Of a stretch of DNA of 64,000 bases, positions 1-29,717 are shown one piece after another. The stretch's first letter is position 1. Each line of letters opens with the position of its first letter. The stretch is from Plasmodiophora brassicae (lineage: Eukaryota): contig CP145411.1 in the NCBI GenBank assembly GCA_036867785.1, forward strand, positions 186,001 to 250,000, given 5' to 3'. Below the pieces are notes generated by a model. The model saw only the letters and a program-made list of their open reading frames with translations, did no database searches and was not told the DNA's origin. Made by a program: the position numbers and the translations under genes.

Positions 1-3000
1 GGATCTTCTGGTGGTAGTCAGGCACTTCCGATTTCTTGACGTTGAACCGGAACAGGATCGAATCTGGGTTCGCCCAGAGCGTCTCGATGATCGCCCCCAA
101 ACGGGCCCATAGCGCCTGAAGCTCATGGTATTCAACAAGGTGTCGTTCGGTCTCCTCGACAGCGGCACGGTTATTCTCCAGGTCGCGTTTGGCCGCATCG
201 ACAACGATCTTGGCGTGAAGTGTCAGAAAGTTCTCAGGGCCGTTGTACGCGACCGAGTTGGACTCGATCAGCTCGAGGTCCGCCACGAAATCGGCACGTG
301 ACGTGTACGCACACTCCCGAACCTTCTTCTTCATCAGGTCAATGTACATGGGCTTCTTGACGATGGTTGAATAGTTCGGCGCAATGTCGTCGGTGACCGG
401 CTTCGAGAACGTTGCAACCCCAATCACATCGCTTGTCGCATCGAGGGCGCTGTTGAAAAACGAATTCAGCGTGATCTGCGGGTCGCCGCGCCTTCGGAAC
501 GACGCTCTCCTCTTTAGGCAGCGCTGTTTTCATCGATTAGACGAGATGTTCGGAGAATCATATCTGTCCAGTACCTCTGCTTCTCCGTCAGCCACAACAG
601 CTATGCTGCGTTCGCGATCGCGCTTTCGCTTCTTCTTTGTCGAAGGGGCACTGGCTGCCTTGGCCGCCGCGGGAGGGTGCGCCTTTGGCGTTGGCTGATG
701 CGGTTCGCCGTCAGCTCGTCGATGTTCGGTGCCTTTCTCGCCATGAGCATGACGTTGCGGCGTAGGAACTTTCGTCAGACTGAGCGTTACGCGCGATTCG
801 GCATCCGTCACTTTCAGAACAAGATTGTCTGCGCCCAGATCTCGTTAGTGAACGTGACAGGAATCACTGCACGGAAACGCTCACCAGGATGATTGGGACA
901 CTTGCGGTTCGACTTCGTGTGCCCGAACTGGCGGCAGGAACTGCATTTCACCATGGGCTTGCCATTGGGACCCAGGACAGGTGTGCGAGGAGGACGCGGT
1001 CGAGAAGGTCGAGGAGCACGCGGTTTCGCTCCAGCCCTCGCCTCCTTCATCCGGCGGCTCGCGGACCGCGCCCCAGACGTCGTTCCAGGCAACAATCTGA
1101 CATCCACATTGGAATGGCCATTACCAAACGCTAACACCAGCAATACCTCTTCCTCGATCTGCCAGACTTCATGTCATCCCGTTTGGTTCGGAAGATTCGA
1201 GATTTCGCGGACTCGCCCGCTTTGCCGACAGGCATGGGGGTCGTCGAGCCATCGGCAACAGGGGGCGTGCCGGTCGCGGCGTTGAACGCTGCCGCAGACG
1301 ACGAAAGTGCATCCTCAAGCGCCTTCAACCGGGAACCGTTATCGACCTTGTCCGCTACTACACGGTAAGCAATCGGGCAGCGGGACACGGCAGATGCACA
1401 GCATACCAAGATACGCTTCAACCCATGCAGGATCGTCAATGATGGTGACGCGCTCATGTTCCGTTCCATCGAGGTCGCGCGTAACTTCCCGACGCCGAAT
1501 CCGCCTTCGGATGGTTTTCGGTTTTGTAGAAGGCACTCCTGGGGCAGGTCCTTGGGTCGGGGCAGCAACCACAACCTTGCCTTCGTCAACGTCCATGGCC
1601 TGGACGTCAGTGGCAGGCGGCGGAGGCTGAGAAGCGGCCGCAGCCTTGGACGACTGCTCACGCATGAACTTATCGTATTCTGCCTGTTCTTGATCCGCCG
1701 TCGCAGGCGCCGAAGCCGCGCGATCATCCAGCATGTCCTCGAGATCAGCGGCGAGCTCATCGGCTTCGTCTTCGCTTGACCTGTCGTCCAGCGAAGGCGG
1801 AACCGAACAACGAAGGACTTCACATTGGCGATCAAATATCTTCTGCGCTTCCTTCAAGAACCGTTGATGTTGCACACGGTTCGTGTTCCGTTGCTGTCGC
1901 GCGAATCGACCGAATTGTGTCACCTCGCCGTTCAGCGTTGCGTCAGACGACAGCTGGCGAAGAAGAGCAACCCGTTTCCATCTCGCCAGCGATTTCACTT
2001 CCTGCTCAGAGATACCAAAGAAGACGAGGGCGTCAAACAGCTCCTGCATGTTCAGCTTCCGCAAGTCCTTATCAGTACCGGTAAGCGCTTTCGCTGGGGC
2101 AATCTTCGGGGCCGTTGGGTCGGCTTCGAAACGGTGAGGGGCTTTGATGTACGAGAACCCGGCACCGTGACCGAGAGGGTTCCCGGGACCCTGCAACTTC
2201 AGCAAGCATCGACCCTGAACAGCGCTCACGAAATTGGACGTCAGGTTCCATGGCGTCAGCTGCAACTCCTCCTCAATGTACTCCAATTGGCGCTTGAGAA
2301 GGCCCGGTTGCAGTTTGCTGATGATCGTCGACAGCTGTGGAGTCCAAACGAGAAGCTCTTCGATCCCAAGCATTTCCAATCGGTGCTGTCCAGCGCGCAT
2401 GCTTGCGAATTCACACATGTTCTCCGGCGTGACCATCTCCCGAATCGCTGATTCAGACGGCAGTTTGGCGCGCTCCTGGTTCAGGACCCAGCAACCTGAC
2501 TCGTGTCCACCACGCTGGAAGTCGGCAACCTCCTTCAGCTTGGCTCGGATCGCGGTCTCGGATTGAGTGGGGAACGCGTCGAACACATCGGCAATGAGCA
2601 GCTTGGGGTTCTGCCTCAGAAGCCGATAGATGAACACGGAGAGCATGTCTTTGAGAGCAGCATTGGCATCACGCGCGTTCGGTGTTTTGACCTGGACTTT
2701 GGGCTGAATCTGCCCAACTGTGTAGAGCGCCGGGACCTCACGGATGACCCAATTGGCCCGTTTAGGAGAGCGAGACAAAAGAAAATCGGTGGGGGAGATC
2801 GCGTGCTGGAACACGGGAGCAGCGAACATGTTGTTGTTCATGCTCATTACCGACGACCCTTGACGCACATCCGCAATGAAGGGCGACTCGTCATCCTTCT
2901 CCGGAGACAGCACCTTGACCATACCATCAGCGACAACGGGCTGCGTCTGGTCATTGGAGTGCTTCTGCCGGTAATAGGTGACAAGCTCGCTCGCCATGCC

Positions 3001-4464
3001 GACATTCGCAATCAGCGGAGGGTGCTCTTCGACGAACTCAGCCAAAATCACTCGGCCGTCACGTGCGCTCACTTCGCTTTCCTTCTTTGGGACGTACTTG
3101 CGAGCGCTCGCAGAGTCCACAATCCGAGGCTTGTCGGTGTACCTGGGAGAGATAAACGCAGCATCAAGCCGAGCGCGAGGTCGGTGAAACCATCGTAGTT
3201 CGTCCTCGGTGAAGTACGACTTGTACACGGGGCGTGCCAGATCTTGTGCAAATAGGGCATGCTGAACGGCGGCGCGACCGACGACAGTGCGTTCTTCAAC
3301 GCCGGCATTTGCATACAATTCCGAGTCGTCCAAAGACAGGTTGAACCGTGTGGCGAGGTCCACGTCATCGCTACGTTGCGATTCGGCAGCGACCGCAGTC
3401 TCCCCTTCTGCAAAGATCATGTTCGGGTCGTTCTCGTTCAGTAGCAAAGCCGTCATCATCGGTCGGTGCTGCTTCGCCTGCGTCTCATCCCAAACGACGG
3501 TCGACAGCCAGTCCATCGAATCGAAATCCGGATTCACCGACGATAAAGGAGGCATTAGCGGCGGCAGCTCAGCGGCATGCACAGAGGCAGATGGCGCCGA
3601 TGTGCCTTCCCAGAACTTTGACCGTGGCAAATCGGCATCAGGCAGAGCGGAGACGACCGCTCGCTCATCAGCAAAAACCGTCCTAGACGGTTTACGGCGC
3701 CTCAAATCGACCTTGATCGATATACGCTCATGCCGCTCAGGCAGTGGGTCAGCGGGATCAGCACCGAAAGCGGCATTGAATTCGGCGTCAAGACCCGCTT
3801 CAATGTCGGGAACGTGGGCAGGTGCAACTGGTGGCGGCGATGACAGTGACTGCACAGAGGACACCGGTGATGAAGGTTGATCACGTCCATCCGACCATCT
3901 GATACCCTGCTCCCATTCAAGCTGCTCGACAAGGGCAAAGGCGGAGTCGTCGAGCCTAACGGTAAGGTCAATGCCGACTAGTTCCCCTGGCGCTTCCTTC
4001 ATCGGCATGGCGAACGGAGCTTCTTCAGCACTGGTTGCCAAACCAGTGTCATCAGACGATGTTCCTGACGCCGGTCCGGAAAGGAATGTCGATTCATCTT
4101 CGATGATTTGGCGTTCGATCGCTTGAGGGATGCTCAACTTCGGGAATCTATATCGCCGAGTGGTTGCCTCCGGAAGCAGGTTCGCCGTTGTAAAGTACAT
4201 GGTCGAAAATTTGAGGATATCAGAGCCGTCTTCGTCCTTCCGTAGAACGGGAGGCATTGGGACATGCACAGTCGGTGGCGGCGGTAGGTCGACGATGGGA
4301 AATTGGATCGCGTTGACGGCGGGCGCAGACGGCTTCTTCGATTCCGGCCGCCTGGCAACCTGCAGTCCGTTGTCCGCGGCATCATCGGCATCAAAATCTT
4401 CGCTCTCGTCCGATTCGTGATGTAAGGCGCGATACGCCATCTCGCGATCGTCGATGTAGGCCAT
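1..4464 (-). CDS. TAF1: Transcription initiation factor TFIID subunit 1 (multi-exon; 3' end runs off the window)
   Basis: ORF 1339-4464 carries TAF1 central-domain motifs (EFVEEHPPLIANVGM, TDFLL, VTPENMC, LTPWNLTSNF, LTGTDKDLRKL). GTATGC donor at 1406. Downstream exons encode the zinc knuckle CSSCRQFGHTKSNRKCP (~890-950), a bromodomain (FSKPV..APNYSTIVKKPM..NSVAYNG, ~240-420) and the start of a second bromodomain (~1-100). Confidence 0.93.
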
Positions 4465-22541: not shown

Positions 22542-22654
22542 TTACTGGAAATCATTACCAGAAAGAAGTACGCTGTACCCCACTCGTTGTAGCACAGTGC
22601 ACTGCGCAGCCCAGTGTGCAGTGGGCTGCAGACGTCAGGTACAGGAGGTACTAG

Positions 22655-24381
22655 ATGATGACGGCGTCGGCGCCTGTGGCAGTGTCGCCTGAGGACCCGG
22701 CGGCGTCGTTCGCAGCGACGAAGTTGAATACGCTAGATGAGCTTGCGACGTGGACGAACTGGAAGATCCAGCAGCTGTTCGCGTTGAACGAGTTCGATCA
22801 GTGCCTTACGCTGATTGAGTCTGTTCTTAACGAGTCGAAAGGACAGTCTGAGTTCGCTCTGTACATCAAAGGTGCTGGTTCACTGGGAACATTAGGTACC
22901 TTCTCGTGCTGAGTAAGGGCATGCCAGGCAAAATTATGAAGCACACTGGCCGCATCGACGAAGCACTGGAACTGTTCCAGGCTGCGGCGACGCTTTGCCC
23001 TTCGAATCACCTTAACCTAAAACAGGTCGCTCGGTGCCTCTTTCTGCTGGGAAGGTTCGAAGCGGCGCTGACCGTGTACGAGGAAGCCGAGAAGCTGGGC
23101 GGCGAACAATGGGTGCCGGAGCCTGACCGTTCTTCAGCCTTATTTCTAACTTGCCGTTGTGGACAGGACATTTGGCAGAACAAGGGGCTCTGTCACTGGA
23201 GGATGCGACGGCAACCGGAAGCGCTGGAGTGTTTCCATAGCGCCAACATGATACAGCGGCATGACGCGACCTACCTGCTGATGGGCAAACTGCTCGTAGA
23301 AATGAATGAGTTGCAGAAGGCGATCGCTGTCTATTCGGAAGCCCTCGAGTGCGTCATCGAACACGTAACCTAATTGCCAATGCATCTGATATTTGATCCG
23401 CCAGGTTTTCGCCCGATAACTCTCATCTGTTGACCACGTTGGGACTTTTGTACATGAAGACTGGCGAGAGTTTCAAAGGGTTCGAGAACCTTGGTAACTC
23501 GTTGACGCACGATGCGGGAAACGCTCGCGTATGCAATCGACGGCTGCTTCCAATGCGTGCTGCAGCCACGAGTGGCTAATACGATGCTCAGACGATACTG
23601 GCAGCCGGTTCCATCATCCAAGATCACAATGACACTGAGGTCGCTCTCATCAAATACCGCGTCGCTGCCAAGAAGATCCCAGCGTCCGCTCAGCTGTGGA
23701 ACAACATCGGCATGTGCTTCTATACGAAGCAGAAATACGTCGCCGTATGTTTCCACAGCCCGGGTCCCTTGGCGCCTGTTGACGTGATGCAGGCGACATC
23801 GTGCCTGAAACGGGCATTATACCTGGACCCTTTCGAATGGATCATTTCGTATAACCTCGCCATGACGCACCTGCAGACCCGTCAGTTCGCATCAGCATAC
23901 CACCACTTCAGTGCCAGCATCAATCTTCAACCAGTGCGTGCTTCGGGACGACCGTAGCAGGTCAATCTTCTCAATGTTGAACAGGATAACGCTGCATCGT
24001 ACATGTACCTGGCCATCGCTTTGTCGCATCTCGGAGACGCCGAGAACACCTGCAATGCATTCGCCAAGGCGCTCGAACTCGACAGGTTCGGATTTCGTTC
24101 CGATGCAGTCACCCAATCTTATGATCGGCGCAGTGGAAGCTTCCTCATCAACTTGAATTTCGCAGTCACACTCTTGCAGTTGGGCGACCGGCCGCGATGC
24201 GCTGAACAGTACAATCAGTTCGTCGAGAAGTGGTCACGTCTCGACGAGACGCAGCAGTCAGCGGTAGGTAACATTCGTTGTGTTCAACGAAATCACATAG
24301 TCATTTCATACATGGCAGCACCCTGCTGTCAAGATTCAGAGATCCAAGCTGGAGGCAGCGTTAGGCATTCGACTGGCGTGA
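22655..24381 (+). CDS. BBS4: Bardet-Biedl syndrome 4 protein (BBSome TPR subunit; multi-exon)
   Basis: [57 protein letters not shown] and [19 protein letters not shown] match the BBS4 family. Confidence 0.92.
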
Positions 24382-24480: not shown

Positions 24481-25773
24481 TCATGACCTTCCTATTAGCT
24501 CTGGTAGAATCTCGGCGCCAAACTCCCACCGGAATGGTTCCCGACCGGTCGGATGCCAATACGAGGGCGTCATCCACGCCTCCCTGTCGAGGTTGACCAT
24601 AGGCGCGCAGATGAACGTCTTGGGTTTCGGTTCGTGTACCGGGAACGTGCCGATAACTGGCACGGATGTTTCGGCCAAACCTCGAAGCGGGTACCCGAGC
24701 ATTCGCGAGAATACGAACTCCTCGTAGAACACGGTGACGGCCGGGTCAATCAGGATGTTGCCGGGACCGGAATCCCAGACATCCTTGCAGAAGAGGAAGC
24801 ATTCCGAGGCCATACACATGCCATCGGTGCCAGATCGGAACCTGATCCCCCGCGCGAACACGTCGGCGCTGATGACGGTCAGCCCGTTCCAGCAGGAATA
24901 CACAGGGATCGGCAGGCCCGCTTTCAGCCGCTCTATATCGCTGGAACGCTGGAAGTACGGGTAGAACCCGGACACCTCTTGGCCGGCCATGTCGCGTGTC
25001 ACCCAGATGTCATAGAAGAGCATCTTCGAGTCGGGAGTGGCGACGAAATCCATGGCGCACACCATCTCGACCTGGTCGCCCAGCGCGATCCGCTGCGCTA
25101 ACCGGGCAACATCATCGGCGCAGAAGAACTGGAACACATCGTTAGCGTAAACGGGTTCGCATGCACTGTACGCGTCGACACGCACCACGTCGTTGATGAA
25201 GACGACAAAGTCGGCCGCGAATTCGCCATTGTACAATGGCTCCATGACGATATTCCTGACGGTCGCCAGGAAGTCGATCCGATGCTGTTGCTTCCCGCGC
25301 GAGTTCATGTCGGATTTGAGCGCATGCGGGATCCGCCTGGCCGACAGAATCCTTTGAAGGACACGCAACCACTGTGCGGTCGTATCCAGACTACCGCTCT
25401 CGTAGATGGAGACGAACATTCGATCGGGGCCGAGCGCAGACATCAGCCGCTCCAGCTGGGCAATGATCGGCCCGACAACGTTCTCGCTCTCGTGCAGGTT
25501 CAAAGCGAAATAGTATTTGCCGGCGGGCATACCGAGCGTGCCGTTCGGGTATCGACGCGGGCACAAATCGGCCACGGGCACCGGGACGACCCCGTGCCAC
25601 CTCGTCTGTGCAACCTCGTAGTCGAACGACGCGTACAGCAGGACGACCAGGCAGACGAGCGCCGTGCCGATGGCGACTTTGGCGCCGACGTATCGACGGC
25701 CGAGGCGCTGCGCGCGGTCGTAGATGCCGTCCTGGTCCACCCGCGCATAGCCAGCGCGACGCGACCGCAGCAT
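24481..25773 (-). CDS. GT69 CAP59-like alpha-1,3-mannosyltransferase (type II membrane; probable in-frame intron ~25129-25185)
   Basis: N-terminal TM; YFALNLH, FVSIYESGS.D.T, RIDFLATVRN, FINDV|FFC, CAMDF, FYDIWVTRD, VYSCWNG, SECFLFCKD. Confidence 0.88.
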   Translation of the reverse strand: MLRSRRAGYARVDQDGIYDRAQRLGRRYVGAKVAIGTALVCLVVLLYASFDYEVAQTRWHGVVPVPVADLCPRRYPNGTLGMPAGKYYFALNLHESENVVGPIIAQLERLMSALGPDRMFVSIYESGSLDTTAQWLRVLQRILSARRIPHALKSDMNSRGKQQHRIDFLATVRNIVMEPLYNGEFAADFVVFINDVVRVDAYSACEPVYANDVFQFFCADDVARLAQRIALGDQVEMVCAMDFVATPDSKMLFYDIWVTRDMAGQEVSGFYPYFQRSSDIERLKAGLPIPVYSCWNGLTVISADVFARGIRFRSGTDGMCMASECFLFCKDVWDSGPGNILIDPAVTVFYEEFVFSRMLGYPLRGLAETSVPVIGTFPVHEPKPKTFICAPMVNLDREAWMTPSYWHPTGREPFRWEFGAEILPELIGRS

Positions 25774-26149
25774 CCGGCGGTCGCCACGGACTGTGCTGGT
25801 GGACCGCCGCCGACCCCCGCCCCGTGTGCCAGTCGCAGCCCCAGCTCGACCACCACACGTATGCAGGTCGCCCCGCCCGACGCCCGTCTTCGCCCGCACT
25901 TGCCATCGTCGGGTGTCGACCGTCGCGAAACGGGTACACTCGCTGCTCGGGTCGCAAGGGTTGCCGAGGTTGCTGGCCCAGCTCCCGGGCGATATGCCAT
26001 ACATTTACGTCAGCAGACAGGGATCTGGGTTGGCATTGTCACACTTGCCAGAATGGTTTCGTCGTTGCCGTGTGCGCTGTGCACGGGCGCGTTCCATGCC
26101 TTCTTCTGCATCCTGCCGGCAGTCGATCATTTTTGGTGCAGCTTCGCTG

Positions 26150-28096
26150 ATGGCGGAGAGCGCGTCATCGGCGTCGACGGCACCGGCGCCGGCGCGGAAA
26201 CGGAAGCGTGGCGGCGGCGGATGGAAGGCGAACGCGGTGCCGTTTCCGGAAGCGGCAGCGAGGGAGGGGGGTGTGGCGGCGCCGGCGGCTAGCGGGCCAG
26301 CGGGGTTGCCTGGCGACGTGTTTGTCGAGCAGGAGAAAGTGGTCGATGGGGTCGTGTGGGACGCGGCGTCATTCGCCGAGGAGTGGTGCAAGTGGCCGCG
26401 GATGGGGGCGCCCATCCATGGTGCACCTATCATTCCGATGAAGTGCCCGCTGCCCGCCTCGTTCGATGATGTCGTTGCCGATGAGCACAAGTTCAACGCG
26501 GCCATGGCCGTGCGGTATCACCGGTCGAAAGGCGTGTCGATCGGCATGGTCGTCGCGCTTGTCCATTGTCAAGCCAGATCGCACCTGACAGCGTGCGCGC
26601 CCATATCTGACCAATGGACATCCAACGAAGAGCTGCGTAGGCTGGGCGTCACGCTCTGCACGTTGCGTCTGTGCGCAACAGAGTCCTTCGCAAAGGACGA
26701 TTCAAAGATGTACGCTTGGCGGGTGCGTCTTGCTGCATAGCAGTCACTGAGATTTCATGTACCACAGCATTCCATCGGTTGATGAAGTGGCGGCGTTCTG
26801 CAAGGTCGTTTCCGGGTACGTGGAACGGAACCCCGGTCAGCACGTCGCTGTCCATTGCACGAGCGGGTTCAACTGTACCGGGTTCATGACGGTATCCTAC
26901 ATGGTCGAGGTGAATAACTTCTCGGTTCATGCGGCCCTGGAGTCGTTCGCTACCAGTCGTCCTCCTGGCATCTACCTACCTGTTTGGGTTCGTGCTTTGC
27001 TGGTGCGATACGACGATGCTACTGTGAAGGAGTCCGAGCAGGCGGCCAGGCGAATGCTTTCGAATGTAAACCTGCCGTGCTGGGACACCTCTCCTGCCCC
27101 ACCGACGTTCACCATACCAGTTTGTGCTGTGTGCCGTCTGTAGAACGTGCGCTGACGTGATTTTGTTTATCGAAGGCAGCGAGTGGCGGCGATGTGGCTC
27201 CCCGAGTCGTGTTCCCCAAAGGCGACCTTCCTGAAGCGCGCCTCGTTGAGGATCCAGTTGAGCAATCAAAGCTCCGGTCGACGTTCCAGAAACTTGCTGC
27301 CCTGCTGGGACCTGACCCATTCGCGGCGTTCACCCCTCTACGATTTGATGGTACGGGTCAATTCACTTGGCCTATGGCTTACTCAAACTACGGGCAGATG
27401 AGGGATCCGCGAAACGGATCCTACAAGCCGCGCCCCTAGTGACCTGGAGAACGCTCGGCTTCCCTGTCTTCTTCATGATCGCCGGGAAATCGTCATTCAT
27501 GATCACAGTGGATGCCGTCCATGAGCTGCCGAATATGTCGTTCCCAAAGCGAAAGGTTTTGCCTCGGTGCGGGTCGGCCTGAGGTGGTTGCTCACATTTC
27601 GTCCAGAACCCTAACGAGTTACTGGATGGTACTCTACTTGTTGGCGACCTCGTTGTCGACGAAGTATCTGGAGCTGGGAGAACGCCTCGCTTCCTGATAC
27701 TGGACTTGATTGCGTTCGGCGGGCGTCCGTTGCTTGAGCAAATCTCGATTCCAGTAAGCGACGTGCTGTGCACAATGGCCAGACGTGGTACTGATTTGGC
27801 CGGGGGGTCAGAAACGTCTTGAGTGTGCACGTGTCGAAATTGTAGATCCTTCCCGGGTTTGCTCGCATCGGCTCCGTCTGCGCGTGAAGTCCCTCGTCGC
27901 CCTGTCCCATGCTGAGTCCATTGTCACCAAGATCATCCCCACACTCCCGCACAGGCACGATGGGCTGCTCTTCGTCACATCAGCTGGGGCAGGTCACGCA
28001 CGCACCACAGCTCCTCGTGTTTGCGAGTGGATCGAGACGTCGTCGACGATTACTCGACAGGCTGTGCTGGACTTGATCAGGAATATATCATCATAG
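26150..28096 (+). CDS. mRNA capping enzyme homologue (cysteine-type RNA triphosphatase + guanylyltransferase domains), catalytically degenerate; multi-exon
   Basis: W..WPRMG.PI...IIPMKCPL, VHCTSGFNCTGF, RPPGIY; guanylyltransferase-like LVTWRTLG, GTLLVGDLVVD, RFLILDLI, PHRHDGLLF. Confidence 0.8.
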
Positions 28097-28169
28097 GTTC
28101 ACCGGACGGAATGCAAGTTGGACATCGTGTATTTCACCGGACGGGTCGGGACCCGAAGGCAGGAAAGAC

Positions 28170-29416
28170 CTACATGATATCCTTGCCGACAGTCTCGTCG
28201 TCCTTAAGGGATTTGTGGGGCGCAACACGAACACCATTCATCAAGGCAACCCCTTCCCCAACGCCGACGTCCTTGCCGAGAACGGTATCGGGACCAATCC
28301 TTGCCCACTTGCCAACTTTGCAATCCCACCCAATGATGGACGATTTGATGCACGCCCCACTGCCGATCTTCGCCCCAGACAGGATAGCGCTACGTACAAT
28401 GCTGACACAGTCGCCAATGACGGTTCCGGGGCCGATGACAACGTCGGGGCCAATCTTGCATCCGGAACCAATCGTTGCGGTAGGGTCAATGATGACATTG
28501 CCGGTAACGGCTGGCGACGACGATAGCAGAGGCGACTTGGCACTTTGCAGCGACGCTAGGTACAGAACTTGACCTCGCAGGTAATCAAGAGGCTGCCCGA
28601 TGTCCATCCAGAATCCAGGCAGGACGAACTGGTACAGGGTTTTGTCGTTCACCATAGCGGGGAACGTCTCACGCTCGATCGACGACGGTACCGGACGGAG
28701 GCGATCCAGAATAGCACGGTTGAAGACATATATCCTACACGACCAATGATCAGGATGCGATCCCTAACGGTCTTGACGACGATGGTACCCTGCATTGATT
28801 TTGTCGCCGACAAACTCGGTCGGCTTCTCGACGAAGCGTTCGATTCGGCCAGTAGGTTCCGCGACCACAACGCCGTACTTGGAAGGGTCTGACACCTTCG
28901 TGACGACAATGGTTCCCTCTTTGCCATGCGACATGTGGAACTTGAGGAGGGCCTCGAACGGGAAGTCGCAGATCACATCGCTATTCAGGACAAAGAACGG
29001 ATCTGGACCATCCAAATGACGACGCGCCAAGGCCAGCGGCCCCGCTAGCATGGCCATTAACATTCATCTTAGGCAGGGTGCTGTAATTGTTACCTGTCCC
29101 TAACGGCTCGTCTTCTTTGGACGTAATGATCTTGATCCCCAACTGACGAGGTGCACTAAGACAATGCGATTCCGTCGTCGTCCGTTGCAGACGGCGTTAC
29201 CTGCTTCGATCGTTCACGAAGGTACTCCTCCATGACATCGGACTGGTACGAAACGGCAAGAACGACCTCGGTGACGCCGACTTTGACGAGCGCCTCGATC
29301 TGGTGCATCACGATCGCCTTGTTGGCGAACGGCACCAGTGGTTTCGGAGCATCGAACGTCAGCGGTCGCAGACGCGTCCCGTATCCGCCCACGAGAATCA
29401 GGGCCTTGCATGGCAT
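28170..29416 (-). CDS. GMPPB: Mannose-1-phosphate guanylyltransferase (GDP-mannose pyrophosphorylase; multi-exon)
   Basis: [72 protein letters not shown]-terminal hexapeptide repeats. Confidence 0.95.
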
Positions 29417-29717
29417 CGTGAATGGACCCTCGCGACCGGCCACACCCATTGACTTTGAGTCCGCCGTCCGAACCGTCCCCGGCGCTATCCCAAAATTAAA
29501 CGAGACGGTCGCAGGCAAAAAGGCGATCACGCTGCAAAATGGTGTTGTGTGAGTTGTGACTTGTGAACCTCATCGAAACGTTGCGTTTTCCAAATATAGA
29601 ATCGGTTGATGCTAAATACAGTCGAAGCTGGAGCTGGGCCGGAATTAGACTGGCAGCTATAACTTCGCAGTCTCCCCAGCAAACGGGAGATTCGCTCAAG
29701 GCGACGCTGACCTGGAC

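Follow-up and report, generated by a model that had tools for sequence, protein, structure and literature searches.

An OB-less relative of the two-domain capping enzyme RNGTT, with both active sites degenerate, in Plasmodiophora brassicae

The window analysed here, a stretch of 64,000 nucleotides of the genome of the clubroot parasite P. brassicae, harbors at positions 26150-28096 a gene made up of six exons, separated by five GT-AG introns (58, 56, 47, 51 and 58 nt, from the first to the fifth) and encoding an open frame of 558 amino acids. The protein corresponds to the database entry P0157, P. brassicae PBRA_005166, which matches the window model. In a preliminary description of this DNA it was regarded as a homologue of the capping enzyme RNGTT in which both active sites are degenerate, the frames and introns being otherwise intact; the latter statement holds, and all five introns are spliced in one of the runs considered below (X19). 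The features of the gene are the following (human residue numbers were mapped through P0002 by printed alignments):

26150..26709, + strand: exon 1, with the start codon, a basic NLS-like patch, a low-complexity N-terminus and the first half of the pseudo-triphosphatase; unbroken in the RNA-like contigs
26195..26209, + strand: RKRKR, NLS-like, from the sequence
26768..27119, + strand: exon 2, second half of the pseudo-triphosphatase (DSPc-like) and linker
26853..26882, + strand: P-loop HCTSGFNCTG, Cys kept, His to Ser, CX5R Arg to Cys (TGT at 26874-26876)
27176..27350, + strand: exon 3, where the pseudo-guanylyltransferase domain begins
27398..27555, + strand: exon 4, degenerate motif I and the CDS1-equivalent RK
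27445..27459, + strand: motif I, WRTLG versus WKADG, nucleophile Lys to Arg (AGA at 27448-27450) and Asp to Leu; the preceding Thr is at 27442-27444
27550..27555, + strand: R414-K415, equivalent by alignment to human R330/K331 (CTD site CDS1)
27607..27753, + strand: exon 5, motif III (D to V, E to D), motif IIIa and R443
27688-27690, + strand: R443, equivalent by alignment to human R358 (CDS2)
27812..28096, + strand: exon 6, R466, R488, motif IV HDGLLF, degenerate motif V, terminal helix and stop (28094-28096)
27881-27883, + strand: R488, equivalent by alignment to human R411 (CDS2)
28022..28033, + strand: motif V, CEWI versus LKWK; the OB fold that normally comes next is absent
28097..28106, + strand: very short 3' UTR up to the poly(A) site, from a loose end of 9 A in one X19 contig (single observation)

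The bases and the gene model were checked against four public runs over positions 25900-28300, i.e., three presumed RNA runs (X15, X17 and X19) and one DNA run, which is possibly the window's own source. The RNA label of the former is a guess, not on record, that the spliced joints support. None of the four runs shows a mismatch or an indel, which excludes an assembly error. The exon joints 26709-26768 and 27119-27176 were each seen in all three RNA-like runs, ruling out an alternative intron 2 (model A), so that model B stands. All five introns are spliced in X19, three in X15 and two in X17; introns 3 (27351-27397) and 4 (27556-27606) are both kept in the X15 contig, and intron 4 is kept in X17. 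In a transcript that keeps intron 3 the frame would be shifted, and the product would contain the pseudo-phosphatase domain only, the contigs giving no proportion. The poly(A) end at 28106 comes from X19, the same run that splices all the introns. PBRA_005166 is neither an error nor a decaying pseudogene. Its RKRKR patch, similar to basic patches near the N-terminus of P0001, P0006 and P0008, might mediate nuclear import.

As for the neighbouring genes, an intronless CAP59-like mannosyltransferase gene (24481-26004, - strand; PF11735, 201.7 bits) lies head to head with the pseudo-RNGTT gene; since the two starts are just 145 bases apart, they probably share a promoter. On the other side, a GDP-mannose pyrophosphorylase gene (GMPPB-like; 28170-29430, - strand) converges on the pseudo-RNGTT gene, its stop lying 64 bases beyond the poly(A) site. 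The presence of mannose-pathway genes on both sides is probably due to chance. A multi-exon TPR-repeat gene, which we take to resemble BBS4, is located at about 22650-24300 (+ strand).

The triphosphatase half is recognized by the Pfam DSPc profile in exon 2 with E=4e-7, below the curated cut-off. The HCX5R(S/T) loop required of an active RNGTT is absent in P0157, where it reads HCTSGFNCT, in agreement with the loss of the CX5R arginine previously noticed. The corresponding residue (human R132) is present in all 42 canonical RNGTTs and in none of the 20 members covering this site of the family of 21 proteins defined below. The loop Cys (human C126), which the window protein keeps as Cys217, is conserved in 7/20 members and replaced by Asp in 10/20. 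Other residues of the phosphatase half are strongly kept, i.e., G254 and P290 (21/21) and P253 (20/21). Pseudophosphatases such as STYX have likewise lost loop residues.

The guanylyltransferase half is degenerate as well, although exon 5 alone still matches PF01331 (E=8e-6). The Kx(D/N)G nucleophile motif of active RNGTTs is absent; the substitution of the motif I Lys, already reported, is accompanied by that of the Asp. The Lys (human K294) is found in 42/42 canonical enzymes versus 3/21 family members (nine of the 21 have Arg), and the Asp (human D296) in 42/42 versus 0/21. The change of motif V from KWK to CEW is also borne out, and the two lysines of this motif (human K458 and K460) occur in 41/42 canonical proteins versus 0/21 in the family. 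The motif III Glu is kept in 14/21 members, and the equivalent of human D438 is present in 5/21; across the family, this residue and R315, both belonging to the pocket, are poorly kept.

The absence of a C-terminal OB domain was correctly pointed out in the preliminary description, PF03919 giving no match in P0157 and being found in the whole genome at one place only, on another contig. A hidden OB exon downstream is excluded by the stop, the poly(A) end and this genome scan. The C-terminus is not simply cut off, though: the last helix of RNGTT is retained (helix 546-557 of the predicted model) and residues 314-555 of the model align with residues 229-564 of 3s24, with 226/328 residues covered. 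Since the last helix is kept and the alignment spans to residue 564, the OB fold has been deleted internally. According to the available part of PMC5027499, only the OB-closed form makes enzyme-GMP, and HCX5R(S/T) and Kx(D/N)G define the chemistry. On the basis of this established chemistry, the catalytic changes and the missing OB fold make it very probable that PBRA_005166 has lost both activities, the removal of the gamma-phosphate as well as the formation of the lysyl-GMP intermediate.

In spite of these losses, the structure prediction recovered both RNGTT folds. The predicted model (pLDDT 67.7, pTM 0.46) comprises two domains, whose best structural matches are the human guanylyltransferase (Z 22.7, rmsd 2.4, 226 aligned residues) and the human triphosphatase (Z 16.3, rmsd 3.8, 180 aligned residues); full-length RNGTT ranks first in Foldseek, and the nearest solved structures, both in sequence and in fold, are those of mammalian RNGTT. 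The layout is also that of RNGTT, with a Cys-phosphatase fold joined to a nucleotidyltransferase fold (Pfam DSPc and PF01331; fold matches). Hence, P0157 resembles RNGTT/Mce1 (PDB 8p4b, 8w8e, 3s24, 3rtx, 2c46) in its colinear profile match (E=1e-61), basic residues at the CTD-site positions R330, K331, R358 and R411 and the terminal helix. Unlike RNGTT, it has no CX5R Arg and no KxDG, both motif V lysines are replaced, the OB fold is missing, and it coexists with a split capping set. Since three defining features of RNGTT are lost, it should not be filed as a capping enzyme. The phosphatase fold is shared with DUSP11/PIR1 and the baculovirus RNA phosphatases, which, however, have no guanylyltransferase domain. 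The guanylyltransferase-like domain of CMTR1 (8p4e_O, 8w8f_b) is also a non-catalytic guanylyltransferase fold (Z 15.8), and it docks on Pol II (PMC11139899, available portion); PBRA_005166 may act in a comparable way. CMTR1, however, carries an active methyltransferase, whereas PBRA_005166 carries a dead phosphatase; no methyltransferase domain precedes the guanylyltransferase-like domain of P0157, where only DSPc, Tc-R-P and PF01331 were found.

Two capping designs are reviewed in the accessible text of PMC5027499 and PMC2699512: in animals, a Cys-phosphatase is fused to a guanylyltransferase, while in fungi and protozoa the triphosphatase is of the tunnel type and the guanylyltransferase is a protein of its own. 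The P. brassicae genome (25.3 Mb, 20 contigs) was scanned for components of both; these scans score best candidates only, so that all counts are lower bounds. PF01331 gave three matches, that is, PBRA_005166, a CMTR1-like gene (a label assigned by inspection) and the stand-alone guanylyltransferase P0181, a protein of 374 aa possessing KSDG, KWK, the OB fold and all eight catalytic positions checked. One Cet1-type tunnel triphosphatase scored above the PF02940 cut-off; its exon pieces show E-F-E, DRVRV, RVKDR, LDIT and HELELE, which fit, by eye, the essential Cet1 residues given in the available part of PMC2699512. A stretch that resembles, by eye, a remnant of a copia-type retroelement lies upstream of this gene (locus L014, about 300-800, + strand, contig C3). 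Thus, the genome harbors a split system like that of fungi and protists (Ceg1/Pce1 plus a Cet1-type tunnel triphosphatase), and the available descriptions of such systems (PMC5027499; PMC8311971, in part) include no RNGTT-like third component.

As regards a second, canonical RNGTT, which the preliminary description had suggested looking for, none was found among the best candidates retrieved with PF01331 (three matches), a phosphatase-exon query (four matches) and an active RNGTT as query (three matches). In the last search, PBRA_005166 ranked first, and the other two matches were phosphatase-only DUSP11/PIR1-like genes with intact HCHYGFNRTG loops (L011, C5:1505360, and L012, C3:1146909), either of which could also act on RNA 5' triphosphates. 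Since no active RNGTT was found and a split capping set is present, PBRA_005166 looks like a disarmed RNGTT orthologue rather than a spare paralogue; therefore, of the earlier idea of a retained non-catalytic paralogue, the intact, expressed and conserved double pseudoenzyme remains, while the paralogy is not supported by these scans. This combination of a split set and a pseudo-RNGTT without an active RNGTT was observed in the one genome examined. The genome also contains a separate snurportin gene (PF21974, contig C11) and an RPB1 with a heptad CTD comprising nine exact YSPTSPS repeats. On contig C8 (L013, about 1800-3240, + strand), one long open frame of 942 aa seems, by eye, to combine the C-lobe of a protein kinase with a C2-like stretch and with a PTEN-like phosphatase that carries HCKAGKGRTG.

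The same degeneration is found in one related rhizarian, a comparison that the preliminary description had asked for: the full-length Spongospora orthologue P0001 (48% identical) has HCCSGFNLTG and TWRTV and is OB-less, and the family extends beyond Rhizaria. A phmmer search yielded 967 matches, the best 150 of which were taken; a set of 160 proteins was reduced to 77 with both domains after dropping fragments and three near-duplicates. Twenty of these 77 lack all three of CX5R, KxDG and the OB fold and, in a first tree, 18 of them were placed separately from the active enzymes. The family of 21 consists of these 18 plus P0123, P0124 and P0096, which had failed a gap filter, while P0101 and P0087 were assigned to the controls, a set of 10 proteins that are degenerate in other ways; since the definition used the placement in the first tree, family membership is partly tree-chosen. 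Eight members have a name (Plasmodiophora, Spongospora, Thraustotheca, Globisporangium, Chrysochromulina, Discostella, Chytridium and Amoeboaphelidium) and span Rhizaria, oomycetes, a diatom, a haptophyte, a chytrid and an aphelid; the other 13 have none. Independently, the Atlas placed at the top two clusters of candidate relatives, one from oomycetes (112 members) and one from diatoms (52), for neither of which an OB family is shown; an Atlas search with the chytrid protein, skipping PF03919, gave one match, under 0.9, which is uninformative. Word-index protein searches, which are insensitive, returned one, four and three matches. A metagenome DNA scan yielded 39 loci; no new member appeared among the 10 translated, the readable domains being canonical RNGTT or phosphatase-only.

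In order to assess whether these proteins share a single origin, profiles and trees were compared after masking catalytic columns. When catalytic and substrate-binding columns were masked (369 columns) and each member was scored with its own group left out, 20/21 members scored higher against the family profile than against the canonical ones; the family profile was preferred by 0/10 degenerate controls and 0/12 held-out canonical proteins. With the catalytic columns unmasked, it was preferred by 19/21, both oomycete proteins failing. In two unrooted trees of 52 rows (21 family, 10 control and 21 of the 42 canonical proteins), with catalytic columns masked, all 21 members fell on the same side of a branch, with SH-aLRT values of 87 and 84, the second from a quick tree. 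Branches within the family are long. When 11 rows that were long or of odd composition were removed, 13 members were left, which grouped (98/99) together with one degenerate, OB-bearing Anaeramoeba protein; the latter may represent either long-branch attraction or a real relative. Hence, a single origin of the OB-less pseudo-RNGTT family, apart from the active RNGTTs, is favoured, as far as unrooted trees with moderate support suggest.

Other RNGTT-like proteins have one or both sites degenerate (P0057 and P0089, both from Anaeramoeba flamelloides; P0065, from Aquilegia coerulea; and P0095, P0036, P0101, P0038 and P0016), and most of them keep the OB fold. Separate lineage-specific degenerate copies, as in the plant Aquilegia, therefore exist; since most of these other degenerate proteins nest among active enzymes, catalysis has been lost several times.

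Which residues the family has kept is informative about its possible role. W379, D448, R466, R488, G254 and P290 are invariant. In human RNGTT, the phosphorylated CTD contacts CDS1 (R330, K331 and R386) and the phospho-Ser5 site CDS2 (R358, K403 and R411, of which R358 and R411 were scored here), sites established through mutants tested for CTD binding and activation (PMC8034621, available part). The positions R358 and R411, which form the core of CDS2, are basic in 21/21 family members versus 36/42 and 34/42 canonical proteins. Of the 102 canonical-conserved columns, only nine are kept in at least 20/21 members, and those of the corresponding R443 and R488 belong to these nine; Asp433, a partner of the conserved arginines, is kept in 18/21. 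At CDS1, R330 and K331 are basic in 15/21 members each versus 23/42 and 10/42, whereas the R386 position is basic in 2/21 and has no basic residue in PBRA_005166. The same available text reports that loss of K294 lowers CTD binding in human RNGTT and that E436 then competes for R358 and R411; since a Glu occupies this position in only 3/21 members, the CDS2 site would be left free in most of the family. In addition, RNGTT is anchored on the Pol II stalk by a loop of its OB fold (PMC11139899, in part); PBRA_005166, which has no OB fold, cannot dock in this way.

Based on these comparisons of sequence, PBRA_005166 might be a non-catalytic adaptor that docks on the phosphorylated tail of Pol II, a reading to which we assign a probability of about 0.5. 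Very probably, the protein is a catalytically dead descendant of a two-domain RNGTT and capping is carried out by the split enzymes instead. As an adaptor in the nucleus, it would bind phospho-serine in the CTD at the start of transcription through a basic patch formed by R443, R488 and R414-K415, and its dead phosphatase domain would serve as a protein-binding face that assists in recruiting or licensing elongation factors or the enzymes of the split capping set. Of the two ligands originally put forward, the CTD is thus plausible, because the CDS2 arginines are kept, whereas binding of RNA 5' ends is weakened, since in the triphosphatase loop the Cys has become Asp in 10/20 members and the Arg is found in 0/20. 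Several points stand against the adaptor: the conserved arginines may have a structural role, or their ligand may be RNA or a different phosphoprotein; no OB fold is left; R386 is basic in only 2/21; in human RNGTT, CTD binding is lowered by the loss of K294; 3/21 members keep the motif I Lys; and introns of the guanylyltransferase half are retained in two of the three RNA-like runs. Conversely, the adaptor is favoured by the active P0181 having T, C, L and A at the positions of R330, K331, R358 and R411, by the heptad CTD of RPB1 and by the precedent of the CMTR1 domain. P0181, however, has lysines at the positions of R386 and K413; since these lysines are kept and the S. pombe guanylyltransferase binds the CTD without CDS2 (PMC8034621, in part), P0181 may need no adaptor.

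A rather unlikely alternative is that the protein regulates capping by competition, or that it is a non-catalytic scaffold whose partner is not the CTD but the Spt5 repeats, a different phosphoprotein or a complex involved in RNA processing. A fungal guanylyltransferase binds Spt5 repeats, as the title of PDB 4pz8 indicates, the CDS sites are not specific for pSer5 (PMC8034621, available portion), and the residues kept in the dead phosphatase, surface or core (G254, P290 and P253), are unexplained by CTD binding alone. However, no partner-specific signal was detected, and the ancestral ligand represents the simplest reading of the kept CDS residues.

Another proposal, improbable in our opinion, is that of a reader of caps or RNA ends similar to snurportin-1, whose OB-less dead pocket would bind the cap dinucleotide or a guanine nucleotide, for example in the transport of snRNA or mRNA or in quality control. 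An OB-less, non-catalytic guanylyltransferase-like fold is indeed the layout of the m3G-cap-binding domain of snurportin-1 (1xk5, Z 12.5); besides, the oomycete protein P0042 lies above the snurportin Pfam cut-off (30.3 versus 27 bits), and the motif III Glu and the motif I Arg recur in 14/21 and 9/21 members. Nevertheless, true guanylyltransferases match much better (Z 19.5-22.7), snurportin-1 has no phosphatase domain, and it is encoded in this genome by a gene of its own. Furthermore, PF21974, which is expected of a snurportin together with an importin-beta-binding region, gave no match in P0157 at E<=0.01, and it is the CTD sites, rather than R315 and D438, that are the best-kept charges.

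It is quite improbable that a weak or altered activity is left, such as that of a Cys-based phosphatase on another substrate or a non-covalent nucleotide reaction. The window protein does keep Cys217, motif IV DGLLF and an acidic motif III residue, and within the family the Cys (7/20) and the motif I Lys (3/21) are sometimes retained; but HCX5R(S/T), Kx(D/N)G and OB closure are needed (PMC5027499, available part), and the replacement of Cys by Asp in 10/20 indicates that Cys chemistry is not the conserved trait. Finally, a decaying pseudogene or an assembly error, to which the retention of introns 3 and 4 in some RNA-like contigs and the long family branches might hint, has a negligible probability given that four runs show no variant letters, that a polyadenylated form with all introns removed exists and that the frame is open; moreover, the Spongospora orthologue is full-length and carries matching substitutions, and some residues are invariant across distant eukaryotes.

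Among the scenarios compared, the best explanation of these data is that selection has maintained pseudo-RNGTTs in many protists as well as in early fungi-related lineages. A more far-reaching scenario, only tentatively proposed, would be a once-only shift to an OB-less, non-catalytic phospho-CTD reader recruiting or licensing the split enzymes, in those lineages in which the latter had taken over the chemistry; the last common ancestor of most eukaryotes would then have possessed both capping systems. In the open-access literature no description of an OB-less, doubly dead RNGTT family was found, although subscription papers or supplements could mention it. Capping is not mentioned in the main text of the oomycete phosphatome and fungal pseudophosphatome papers (PMC10925823, PMC13216928), whose supplements could list such proteins, and the available parts of two reviews list only active enzymes.

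The P. brassicae genome thus harbors the second capping design together with a disarmed version of the first, and the disarmed copies straddle the deepest eukaryote split sampled, with the chytrid and the aphelid on one side and SAR and the haptophyte on the other. This distribution points to an overlooked non-enzymatic job, probably docking on Pol II. The labels "mRNA-capping enzyme" or "mRNA capping" carried by some family members in databases probably name the wrong activity. The history of capping would have to be re-read, and these proteins would offer a natural separation of function for the roles of RNGTT beyond catalysis. If the once-only shift proposed above is true, early transcription in SAR, haptophytes and early fungi-related lineages would involve the pseudo-RNGTT as a general component that has so far been overlooked; it would also expose a role of RNGTT other than catalysis, possibly still present in animals and plants.
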